Source: Acidimicrobiia bacterium (GTDB lineage: Bacteria; Actinomycetota; Acidimicrobiia; Spongiisociales; ZC4RG35). From it: 64,000 bases of DNA. This document shows, piece after piece, positions 21,294-22,784 of this stretch (within the stretch, counting starts at the first letter, position 1; the number at the start of each line of letters is the position of its first letter). The stretch lies in NCBI GenBank assembly GCA_965215185.1, contig OZ244034.1, positions 768,001 to 832,000 of the forward strand, written 5' to 3'. The notes under the pieces were generated by a model. It saw only the letters and a list, made by a program, of their open reading frames with translations, was not told the origin of the DNA and made no database searches. Both the position numbers and the translations under genes were made by a program.

Positions 21294-22484
21294 GTGGGTA
21301 AGGTGAGGTTTGAGCGGGTGAAGCCGCATTTGAATGTGGGGACTATGGGTCATATTGATCATGGGAAGACGACGTTGACGGCTGCGATTACGCGGGTGTT
21401 GTCTGAGCGGGTTGGTGGGAGGAATGTGTTTACTGGGTTTGATGATATTGATCGTGCTCCTGAGGAGCGTGAGCGTGGTATTACGATTCAGATTGCGCAT
21501 GTTGAGTATGAGACTGTGTTGCGTCATTATGCGCATGTGGATATGCCGGGGCATGCGGATTATATTAAGAATATGATTACGGGGGCGGCTCAGGTGGATG
21601 GGGCGGTGTTGGTGGTTTCGGCTGTGGATGGTCCGATGCCGCAGACGCGTGAGCATGTGTTGTTGGCGCGGCAGGTGGGTGTGCCGCGGATTGTGGTGTT
21701 TTTGAATAAGTGTGATTTGGTGGATGATGAGGAGTTGTTGGATTTGGTGGAGTTGGAGGTTCGGGATTTGTTGACGGAGTATGAGTTTCCGGGTGATGAT
21801 GTTCCGGTGGTGAGGGGTTCTGCTTTGCGGGCGTTGGAGGGTGATGTTGTGGCTGGTGATGGTGTGATGGAGTTGATGGGTGTGGTGGATGAGTATGTGG
21901 ATATTCCGGTTCGGGATATGGAGCGTCCGTTTTTGATGCCGATTGAGGATGTGTTTTCGATTACTGGTCGGGGGACGGTGGTGACTGGTCGTGTGGAGCA
22001 GGGGGTGTTGAAGGTTGGTTCGGCTGTTGAGGTGGTGGGGTTGCGTGAGACGCGTGGTTCGGTGGCGACTGGTGTTGAGATGTTTAGGAAGTTGTTGGAT
22101 GAGGGTCGGGCTGGTGATAATGTGGGTGTGTTGTTGCGGGGGGTGGGTAAGAGTGAGGTGGAGCGTGGTCAGGTGTTGGCTGCTCCGGGTTCGATTTTGC
22201 CGCATGTGGGGTTTGAGGCGCAGGTGTATGTGTTGACTAAGGAGGAGGGGGGGCGGCATAATCCGTTTTTTTCGGGTTATCGTCCTCAGTTTTATTTTCG
22301 TACGACTGATGTGACGGGTTCGGTGGTGTTGCCGGGTGGTGTGCAGATGGTGATGCCGGGTGATAATGTGGAGTTGTCGGTGGAGTTGATTGCTCCGATT
22401 GCGATGACGGTGGGGTTGGATTTCGCGATTCGTGAGGGTGGTCGGACTGTGGGGGCGGGTCGGGTCACCAAAATCACCAAATAA
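21294..22484 (+). CDS. tuf: Elongation factor Tu (extreme G/T codon bias)
   Basis: [66 protein letters not shown]. Confidence 0.98.
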
Positions 22485-22556
22485 CCCCCAAACCAAACAC
22501 AAGACTCGTTTAACGCAAAAGCCCAATAACCAAGACACAAGAAAGAAAAGACCCCG

Positions 22557-22748
22557 ATGCCAAGTGACAAGAGACCCCCTGTCAGGCTCGCCTGCGCCGA
22601 GTGCAAGAGACGCAATTACGTAACCACTCGCGGTAGGGCCAACCCCACCGACAAGGAGCAACGGCGCAACCTGGTGAGAGGGAGATTGGTACTCCGCAAG
22701 TACTGCCGGTGGTGCCGTGTCCATACCTCTCACCGCGAAACCCGATAG
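22557..22748 (+). CDS. rpmG: 50S ribosomal protein L33 (zinc-binding type)
   Basis: [11 protein letters not shown]...[17 protein letters not shown]. Confidence 0.94.
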
Positions 22749-22784
22749 ACCCAAGGCAAACCGCGGCGGGGAGCGGGTAACCAA

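Follow-up and report, generated by a model that had tools for sequence, protein, structure and literature searches.

How can the gene of the most abundant protein in a cell lose nearly every silent-site A and C from its coding strand, and yet carry both in its last six codons? This question is raised by tuf, the gene of elongation factor Tu (EF-Tu), in a 64-kb stretch of DNA from a bacterium of the class Acidimicrobiia. The stretch, referred to here as the window, corresponds to G000:C1:768001-832000, where G000 is the host genome, a single contig of 3.12 Mb with 60.7% G+C and an estimated completeness of 95%. An earlier note on this DNA had pointed to a codon flip at window position 22464, followed by a C/A-rich spacer, as a candidate signature of strand-biased conversion between repeats. 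Both the flip and the spacer were borne out, and the whole tuf gene, not just its 3′ switch, is the anomaly. The skew of tuf goes with concerted duplicates across Acidimicrobiia, and a duplicate-dependent conversion bias of some kind is its probable cause.

Base composition was expressed as the keto fraction, which is the share of G+T, and as K3, the share of G+T at third codon positions. The strength of a switch was expressed as D, the left-minus-right keto skew with 200-bp flanks, scanned genome-wide. The K3 of tuf is 0.98, compared to a 99th percentile of 0.64 in the reference set, the stop-to-stop open reading frames (ORFs) of at least 200 amino acids in the host genome. All but three of codons 1-392 end in G or T. 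All 33 leucine codons are TTG; every Asp, Asn, His, Tyr, and Cys codon ends in T, as do 13 of the 14 Phe codons and 16 of the 17 Ile codons; and every Glu and Gln codon ends in G. Silent-site A and C are left almost only in the last six codons. The skew also reaches the other two codon positions, with K1 and K2 values of 0.65 and 0.55 for tuf compared to 0.52-0.56 and 0.46-0.48 in ordinary relatives. At the 3′ end of the gene, the codons GGT CGG are followed by GTC ACC AAA ATC ACC AAA, the stop codon TAA, and a spacer of 72 nt to rpmG that begins with ccccc aaaccaaacacaagac. The keto fraction falls from 0.74 (22300-22463) to 0.19 (22464-22556) and returns to 0.43 in rpmG (22557-22748). D peaks at 0.91 at window position 22466, the strongest G/T-to-C/A switch in the genome and one of only three such peaks with D > 0.8 (w = 200). 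The fading of the pattern through rpmG, as described in the earlier note, is weak, since the composition of rpmG is ordinary and rpsJ, which lies behind the other copy of tuf, has a K3 of 0.59.

That other copy lies 36 kb upstream (genome 753288-754516), after fusA and before rpsJ, and is 100% identical to the copy in the window over 1229 bp. The identical tract spans from -19 to +16 around the coding sequence (CDS), and the flanks differ, with the str operon on one side of the comparison and the order tRNA-tuf-rpmG on the other. The keto skew is confined to this tract. Its onset, a G-rich ribosome-binding stretch, lies inside the tract, and of the C/A-rich tail, only 22464-22497 falls within it. 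The 100% identity of the two host copies, compared to 93-96% in protein between EF-Tu orthologs of congeners, is what a pair in concerted evolution would display. The neighboring genes have ordinary K3 values: 0.52 in fusA, 0.59 in rpsJ, 0.46-0.55 in rplK, rplA, rplJ, and rplL, and 0.46-0.60 when the rpsL/rpsG and S10/spc-operon genes are included. Therefore, the skew is neither operon-wide nor a trait of highly expressed genes, and translational codon selection was ruled out as its cause. The replication origin of the host genome is near 2.53 Mb and the terminus near 1.11 Mb. Both tuf copies are on the leading strand, co-oriented with replication, and the minus strand of tuf thus has lagging-strand identity. 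The leading strand has a keto skew of +0.02 to +0.07.

The same composition was found throughout the genus. All 12 full-length tuf loci, those of 11 congeners and that of the host, have K3 values of 0.97-0.99. Among the 22 tuf copies of 11 genus genomes, every copy has a body with a keto fraction of 0.73-0.75, a value of 0.19-0.43 over the last six codons and stop, and a value of 0.10-0.37 over the 60 nt past the stop. The C/A-rich spacer is conserved in composition and not in sequence. Two candidate roles for the tail were tried and rejected. A Rho- or terminator-like C/A signal common to genes at large was not seen past the stops of 1676 unique genes. When the tail was tested for pairing with either the ribosome-binding region or the gene body, the duplex energies equaled those of shuffled tails, and the best site was not conserved among seven copies.

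The class sample comprised 151 Acidimicrobiia genomes that were at least 90% complete, from which tuf was read with tblastn in 20 genomes with two full-length hits and 20 with one; the sampled genomes are akin to each other, and their counts overstate independence. The median K3 is 0.78 in the two-hit genomes, with values of at least 0.64 in 19 of the 20, and 0.46 in the one-hit genomes, with values of at most 0.52 in 17 of the 20. In assemblies of at most 10 contigs, K3 is 0.64-0.89 in all 17 two-copy genomes and 0.39-0.52 in all 10 one-copy genomes. The tuf pairs are 98.7-100% identical in all 23 two-copy genomes in which the copies were compared, and nowhere does their homology extend more than about 100 nt beyond the CDS. 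The one exception among the two-hit genomes, G073 (0.45), belongs to the same family as the host. Its two copies (L214 and L215) are only 87.1% identical, with K3 values of 0.45 and 0.48, and therefore are not being homogenized. G073 thus seems, as judged from its sequences, to be a natural control in which the concerted evolution of the tuf pair has halted. It differs from all other members of its family (f1), and in another family (f18) G053, with a value of 0.39, likewise stands apart from five two-copy members with values of 0.64-0.79. The 3′ part of fusA has a K3 of 0.39-0.58 at every locus where it is readable, and the difference between tuf and fusA is +0.25 to +0.50 in two-copy Acidimicrobiia loci and about 0 in single-copy actinobacteria. 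The compositional shift is limited to the converted tract and to the lineages with conversion, as expected of biased conversion.

The switch follows the same distribution. When 29 two-copy genomes of intermediate K3 were compared to 21 single-copy controls, the K3 excess was +0.47 at codons 21-40, +0.21 at codons 361-380, and -0.02 at codons 381-398, and several of the last codons were richer in C/A in the two-copy genomes than in the controls. The switch is a class-wide trait of concerted tuf pairs, in which the skew declines from 5′ to 3′ and reverses some 35 nt before the homology ends on the 3′ side.

The direction of change was read from substitutions, with the base common to two single-copy relatives of the same order (L014 and L019) taken as the ancestral state. 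At third positions of conserved amino acids in the host, ancestral C has become T at 72 sites and G at 38 and is unchanged at two, and ancestral G has been kept at 56 of 59. Where C occupies a four-fold site in both single-copy outgroups, the ratio of C>G to C>T is 49:2 in L016, 19:5 in L013, 39:10 in L015, and 33:17 in the host. At positions 1 and 2 of the host gene, 71 changes are keto-ward (A>G 27, A>T 11, C>T 29, and C>G 4; transitions account for 56 of them), compared to five in the reverse classes (G>A 3, G>C 1, T>A 0, and T>C 1). EF-Tu has thus been pushed toward residues with G/T-rich codons, and the start codon, which is ATG in relatives, is GTG or TTG in the genus. On the coding strand, every one of the four amino-to-keto classes is driven (A>G, A>T, C>T, and C>G). 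This spectrum points to a fixation bias rather than to mutation bias or deamination. The latter would not be the main cause because C>G is prominent and the co-transcribed neighbors are unaffected. Compared to co-occurring relatives in short-read metagenome contigs, which cover tuf in pieces of at most 300 nt, the host gene differs by G<->T exchanges at 44 of 79 differing places (run X5) and 43 of 74 (run X10), which is expected under the model described below, as only the keto class would be allowed.

Mismatch repair in the host offers a possible basis for such a bias. The NucS_C family (PF01939) was found in the host genome with 126.9 bits, and MutS_V (PF00488) and MutL_C (PF08676) were not found by a family search of this single-contig, approximately 95% complete genome. 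NucS was found in 126 of the 151 class genomes, including all 20 two-hit genomes. Oligonucleotide-borne G-G, G-T, and T-T mismatches in M. smegmatis are removed more than 500-fold by NucS, and all others escape (PMC11551767). NucS has also been reported to limit homeologous recombination (PMC5290159, PMC8228993). If the minus strand is taken as the incoming one, the classes driven at tuf are exactly those that lead to A:C, A:A, or C:C heteroduplexes; on the specificity described for M. smegmatis, they equal the classes whose mismatch NucS leaves uncut, transversions included. Furthermore, two genomes with converting tuf copies have near-baseline K3, G024 (0.57) and G040 (0.49), and NucS was not found in either of them by family search and protein query, although its absence from G024 (85% complete) and G040 (1.3 Mb) is unproven. 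These observations make NucS the best candidate for the filter of tuf conversion.

The specific reading proposed here, to which we give about an even chance, is a strand-asymmetric gene conversion between the tuf copies that is gated by mismatch repair through NucS. The two copies would homogenize each other by gene conversion, and the strand transferred over nearly all of tuf would be the template (minus) strand, which has lagging-strand identity. In recombineering, single strands are taken up best in this orientation. NucS would destroy only those heteroduplexes that contain G:T, G:G, or T:T. From the incoming strand, A or C opposite A or C could pass, as could changes that make A:G or C:T; the four amino-to-keto changes on that strand would be blocked, and keto-to-amino changes would pass. 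For a variant to spread to the sister copy, it would need A or C on the transferred strand at a site where the other copy has G or T, and variants of the reverse kind would be erased. The process would act as a ratchet, with A/C accumulating on the template strand and G/T on the coding strand at every site where selection on EF-Tu tolerates it, including some amino-acid positions and the start codon. Toward the 3′ end of the homologous unit the ratchet would weaken, and in the last 10 codons or so it would reverse, which in this model would give the sharp switch at 22464. The reversal may mark the usual start of conversion tracts or a region in which the other strand is transferred. In a more general and rather tentative form, to which somewhat less than an even chance is given, blind spots of repair would turn paralog conversion into a strand-specific ratchet, of the keto/amino type in NucS lineages, where it could take a core gene such as tuf to nearly 100% G/T at silent sites, exchange dozens of EF-Tu residues, and alter the start codon, and of a C>G-only type in MutS lineages; a switch would then mark tract starts and the strand transferred, and the same process would also shape transposases and surface proteins.

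The earlier note had taken skewed tracts as marks of multicopy DNA in general. Self-matching repeats of at least 200 bp make up 11% of the host genome, and a keto skew with an absolute value above 0.25 in 300-bp windows was found in 1.5% of 8966 unique windows compared to 13% of 1173 repeat windows, an approximately nine-fold enrichment. A K3 gradient above 0.25 was found in 0.4% of 1676 unique genes compared to 9.6% of 239 repeat genes. The K3 drops by more than 0.3 from the first to the last third in 18 genes, and the reverse was seen in one gene. The genes with gradients encode IS110 and DDE transposases, S-layer-homology surface proteins, two hybrid kinase-regulator paralogs, an integrase, and a duplicated aminotransferase, and their coding strands run from a neutral or G/T-rich 5′ part to a K3 of 0.02-0.2 at the 3′ end. 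The association with repeats thus stands, and many near-identical repeats are nevertheless unskewed. As a general pattern, the polarity emphasized in the earlier note is real at tuf, but over the genome C/A-to-G/T switches are commoner than G/T-to-C/A ones (10 compared to 3 with D > 0.8, w = 200), and a general excess of the latter was ruled out. That the polarity reads G/T-then-C/A on both strands could, as a conjecture, be explained if breaks occur throughout the homologous unit and both sides of each break are subject to the same filter. Two of the three further instances that had been cited from the window, the fragment at 48994-49214 and the C/A-rich tail at 45880-45960, are skewed and have matches elsewhere in the genome. 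The third, a putative miniature inverted-repeat transposable element (MITE) at 48692-48882, has a keto fraction of 0.60 and then 0.32, but only 30-43-nt matches elsewhere, and is only putatively multicopy.

Several observations weigh against the NucS-gated model or limit its reach. In most congeners the C/A-rich spacer runs on past the end of the homology; this part is beyond what a heteroduplex filter can create and may be a separate selected element. Three genomes with one hit have high K3 values (G121 0.90, G150 0.81, and G074 0.79), all of them metagenome-assembled genomes of 50-170 contigs, and kinship renders all of the genome counts non-independent. G024 and G040, the NucS-negative genomes with near-baseline K3, are incomplete or small. 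Many repeats of 98-100% identity have no skew, for example a 6.3-kb pair and several insertion sequence (IS) copies. IS and paralog families become C/A-rich toward the 3′ end of the coding strand, whatever their replication orientation. Leading-strand genes have a K3 of 0.53, and the difference in K3 between leading- and lagging-strand genes is 0.063 in repeat genes and 0.067 in unique genes; this equality ruled out that the leading strand becomes G/T-rich in all repeats, and therefore a rule that the lagging strand is transferred does not generalize. A further difficulty comes from lineages with MutS. In G041, in which MutS was found, NucS was not found, and the tuf copies are 99.9% identical, there are 184 G compared to 25 C at four-fold sites, and several loci labeled Acidobacteriota, Aquificota, and Nitrospiraceae have the same tuf-specific G excess. 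Copy number did not separate high from low G excess among 16 Acidobacteriota-type genomes. NucS is therefore not required for part of the effect and is not the sole possible filter.

The form of the effect differs between the two groups. In G041, T is found at only 16% of two-fold pyrimidine sites, which is the C>G-only form. Among the loci with G excess, those of Acidimicrobiia have gained T at two-fold sites too, with a difference between tuf and the flanking genes (dT2) of +0.22 to +0.72, compared to -0.32 to +0.05 in the loci labeled Acidobacteriota, Rokubacteria, Aquificota, and Nitrospiraceae. If MutS-type repair is poor on C:C only, the split in T gain is what the model of repair blind spots would predict. 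Thus, of the earlier proposal that NucS asymmetry is the cause, the presence of NucS, the failure to find MutS and MutL, and the fit of the substitution classes all hold, and its reach is restricted by the G-only form in MutS genomes without NucS.

If the filter were something other than NucS, such as a general asymmetry of heteroduplex processing or the preference of RecA for G/T-rich single strands that Tracy and Kowalczykowski (1996) reportedly found, conversion would still be biased and NucS would be incidental. The dependence on duplicates would fit this alternative, as it fits any conversion bias, and so would the tuf-specific four-fold G excess in MutS genomes without NucS. We nevertheless regard it as unlikely: the two-fold T gain is seen only in loci of Acidimicrobiia, a NucS lineage, a split that is not predicted by a RecA preference common to all bacteria, and E. 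coli K-12, with two converting copies, is unaffected (tufA K3 0.51 vs. fusA 0.53). Conversion could also be dispensed with altogether, if a G/U-rich tuf message or a C/A-rich template were favored by selection, for instance because it escapes Rho loading, a ribonuclease, or secondary structure, with the tail serving, for example, as a Rho utilization site. The pattern is indeed gene-specific and stable genus-wide, the spacer is conserved in composition beyond the homologous tract, and a metatranscriptome contig of a relative extends past the tail into a C/A-rich spacer; contigs from RNA runs are too short and too diverged to reveal the ends of tuf transcripts. However, such selection should not need a second identical copy, and the single-copy relatives and G073, with its diverged copies, are ordinary. 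T-ending two-fold codons oppose the preference of fusA and ribosomal protein genes (T 0.01-0.09 in the three fusA genes tabulated), the change from ATG to GTG or TTG and some 70 changes at positions 1 and 2 look costly in so conserved a protein, and similar skews are found in transposases and surface-protein paralogs. Selection on the message or gene thus appears quite unlikely as the main cause.

Single-strand deamination had been named in the earlier note as an alternative. Such strand-specific mutation (C>T and A>G) could strike the non-transcribed strand of a very highly transcribed gene or the ends resected during break repair. It would account for the predominance of transitions among the keto-ward changes at positions 1 and 2, and a polarity with G/T on the left and C/A on the right on both strands is what 5′-3′ resection around a break would expose. 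It is disfavored by the four-fold sites, where C>G exceeds C>T by up to 49:2, by the unaffected genes of the same transcription unit, and by single-copy tuf genes, which are presumably as highly expressed and yet ordinary; we consider it very unlikely. Foreign origin of the gene, or an artefact of assembly or sequencing, is barely credible. The GC3 of tuf, at 0.59, is below that of the neighboring genes (0.70 in fusA), but the pattern is present in more than 40 independent assemblies with both genomic contexts conserved, and the sequence was recovered in independent metagenome runs of several studies. In addition, codon positions 1 and 2 are conserved as EF-Tu, and the identity of EF-Tu declines with kinship, from 93-96% within the genus to 77-82% in other families of the order and about 70-77% across the class, as read from tables of identity.

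Table. Window coordinates of the features at and around tuf and of two further skewed fragments.
Feature	Position	Strand	Remarks	Source
tRNA-Tyr, tRNA-Thr, tRNA-Met	20958-21041, 21067-21141, 21172-21246	+	directly 5′ of tuf, "tufB-type" context	ARAGORN
tuf (elongation factor Tu, 398 aa)	21288-22484	+	start TTG at 21288 or GTG at 21294	
Concerted tract	21269-22497	+	1229 bp, 100% identical to genome 753288-754516	blastn and alignment
Keto-saturated body	21280-22463	+	from Shine-Dalgarno-like GGGGGTGT to codon 392; keto skew +0.3 to +0.7 in 90-nt windows	
C/A-rich tail	22464-22556	+	last six codons, stop, and spacer to rpmG; keto 0.19	
rpmG (ribosomal protein L33)	22557-22748	+	keto 0.43, ordinary composition	name from the earlier note and gene order
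284-aa ORF 3′ of rpmG	22785-23639	+	ordinary composition; presumably MaoC/HadA-like	label assumed from gene order
C/A-rich fragment	45880-45960	+	keto 0.26; matches IS ends; 45860-45980 has 7 matches including its own, the others 81-85%	
Multicopy fragment	48994-49214	+	G/T-rich 0.71, then C/A-rich 0.35; IS256 5′ remnant of the earlier note; 10 genomic matches including its own, the others 87-97%	

Some features near tuf deserve mention in their own right. Because the C/A-rich antisense strand is nearly without stop codons, a spurious 725-aa ORF overlaps tuf on the minus strand (window 21243-23420) and might be annotated as a gene in error. A 201-aa ORF followed by a 119-aa ORF (window 23652-24613) separates the ORF behind rpmG from tRNA-Trp/secE and breaks the usual order rpmG-secE-nusG; from their translations, the two may be a sigma factor and an anti-sigma factor. 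In the class sample, 47 of the 151 genomes had no full-length tuf match, and in several others tuf lies at contig ends. Evidently, identical tuf pairs break short-read assemblies, and marker-based estimates of completeness may be lowered as a result.

Other repeats of the host genome were also characterized. The 6.3-kb pair (genome 1-6352 and 2993335-2999701; L154) is 98.9% identical, lies beside a tRNA gene, and holds several ORFs, with an internal keto skew that swings from -0.64 to +0.62. It may be an integrated element of which the genome has two copies; an rRNA operon was ruled out, as Rfam gives only the adjoining tRNA. A large cluster of S-layer-homology surface proteins occupies genome positions 867993-1011679 (L155, L158-L161), with cadherin, LRR, arylsulfotransferase, PPDK_N, and CAP/PD40 domains. 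These genes begin with a K3 of 0.7-0.9 and finish with one of 0.1-0.2, and a stretch of about 68 bp at or just behind their 3′ ends matches at 91-96% between genes. Two paralogs of a hybrid sensor kinase and OmpR-type regulator (genome 939386-941839, minus strand, and 1608308-1610737, plus strand) have a K3 of 0.02-0.12 over their last 50-100 codons with intact protein domains. A class I/II aminotransferase is duplicated (genome 2649406-2650632 and 2742736-2743962), and, as in tuf, the identity of the copies covers essentially just the CDS; along the gene, K3 declines from 0.5 to 0.15. The gene is a second candidate for a concerted pair. An old family of IS110 type (genome 978496-979752, 1096026-1097288, and some 10 more places) has 73-78% nucleotide identity and shares a C/A-rich 3′ module of about 320-370 bp. 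Between some copies the identity of this module reaches as much as 95-99%, and the module is also found detached from the transposase gene.

If the NucS-gated model is correct, the tuf pair would exemplify a new kind of biased gene conversion, which acts on keto versus amino bases of one strand and, in the cell's most abundant protein, is strong enough to prevail over codon preference, the conservation of the protein, and the strength of the start codon. It would also provide a readout, from sequence alone, of the mismatches that repair ignores, the strand that is transferred between paralogs, and the places where tracts start, all of which otherwise need genetics in bacteria that are uncultured. 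EF-Tu is a standard phylogenetic marker, and trees of Acidimicrobiia would be distorted by some 70 directional changes at its first and second codon positions. The breaking of short-read assemblies by identical tuf copies and the spurious antisense ORF are further practical effects.

Compared to known systems, the tuf pair shares features with several and equals none of them. Concerted evolution of tufA and tufB by gene conversion is textbook knowledge, reportedly described by Lathe and Bork (2001) and Kondrashov et al. (2007), and the present pair agrees with it in its classical contexts, fusA-tuf-rpsJ and tRNA-tuf-rpmG, and in an identity kept over the CDS only. It differs in the near-total loss of silent-site A and C on one strand. 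Concerted tuf pairs have been reported for 29 orders of six phyla, including Actinobacteria and Acidobacteria (Wang and Chen 2018, PMC6053082). In the full-text literature that was searched, which did not extend to subscription journals and supplements, neither a keto/amino compositional effect of tuf conversion nor a link to NucS was found described. GC-biased gene conversion, known from eukaryotes and bacteria, is similar in that a transmission bias in heteroduplexes mimics selection, shifts silent sites, and can fix mildly harmful residues. However, it sets strong against weak bases and is strand-symmetric, and at tuf the bias is keto versus amino and strand-specific, and GC3 falls (0.59 vs. 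0.70 in fusA).

NucS/EndoMS repair, of Actinomycetota, is the system whose known substrates, G:T, G:G, and T:T, are the heteroduplexes that the model needs to be removed. It is known for its action on replication errors and against recombination, and a compositional ratchet between paralogs was not found described in the literature searched. Replication and transcription also produce strand asymmetry, with an excess of G+T on leading and coding strands, and the skew has the same sign genome-wide in the host. Unlike such asymmetry, the skew of tuf is extreme (K3 0.98 vs. 0.53 in leading-strand genes), needs a second copy, and has prominent C>G changes. A switch of polarity at a point resembles the strand-coordinated mutation clusters around resected breaks. 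Finally, fungal repeat-induced point mutation (RIP) likewise aims sequence change at duplicated DNA, but it does so by C>T mutagenesis that inactivates the copies, whereas the tuf copies are intact and functional and their changes include transversions.

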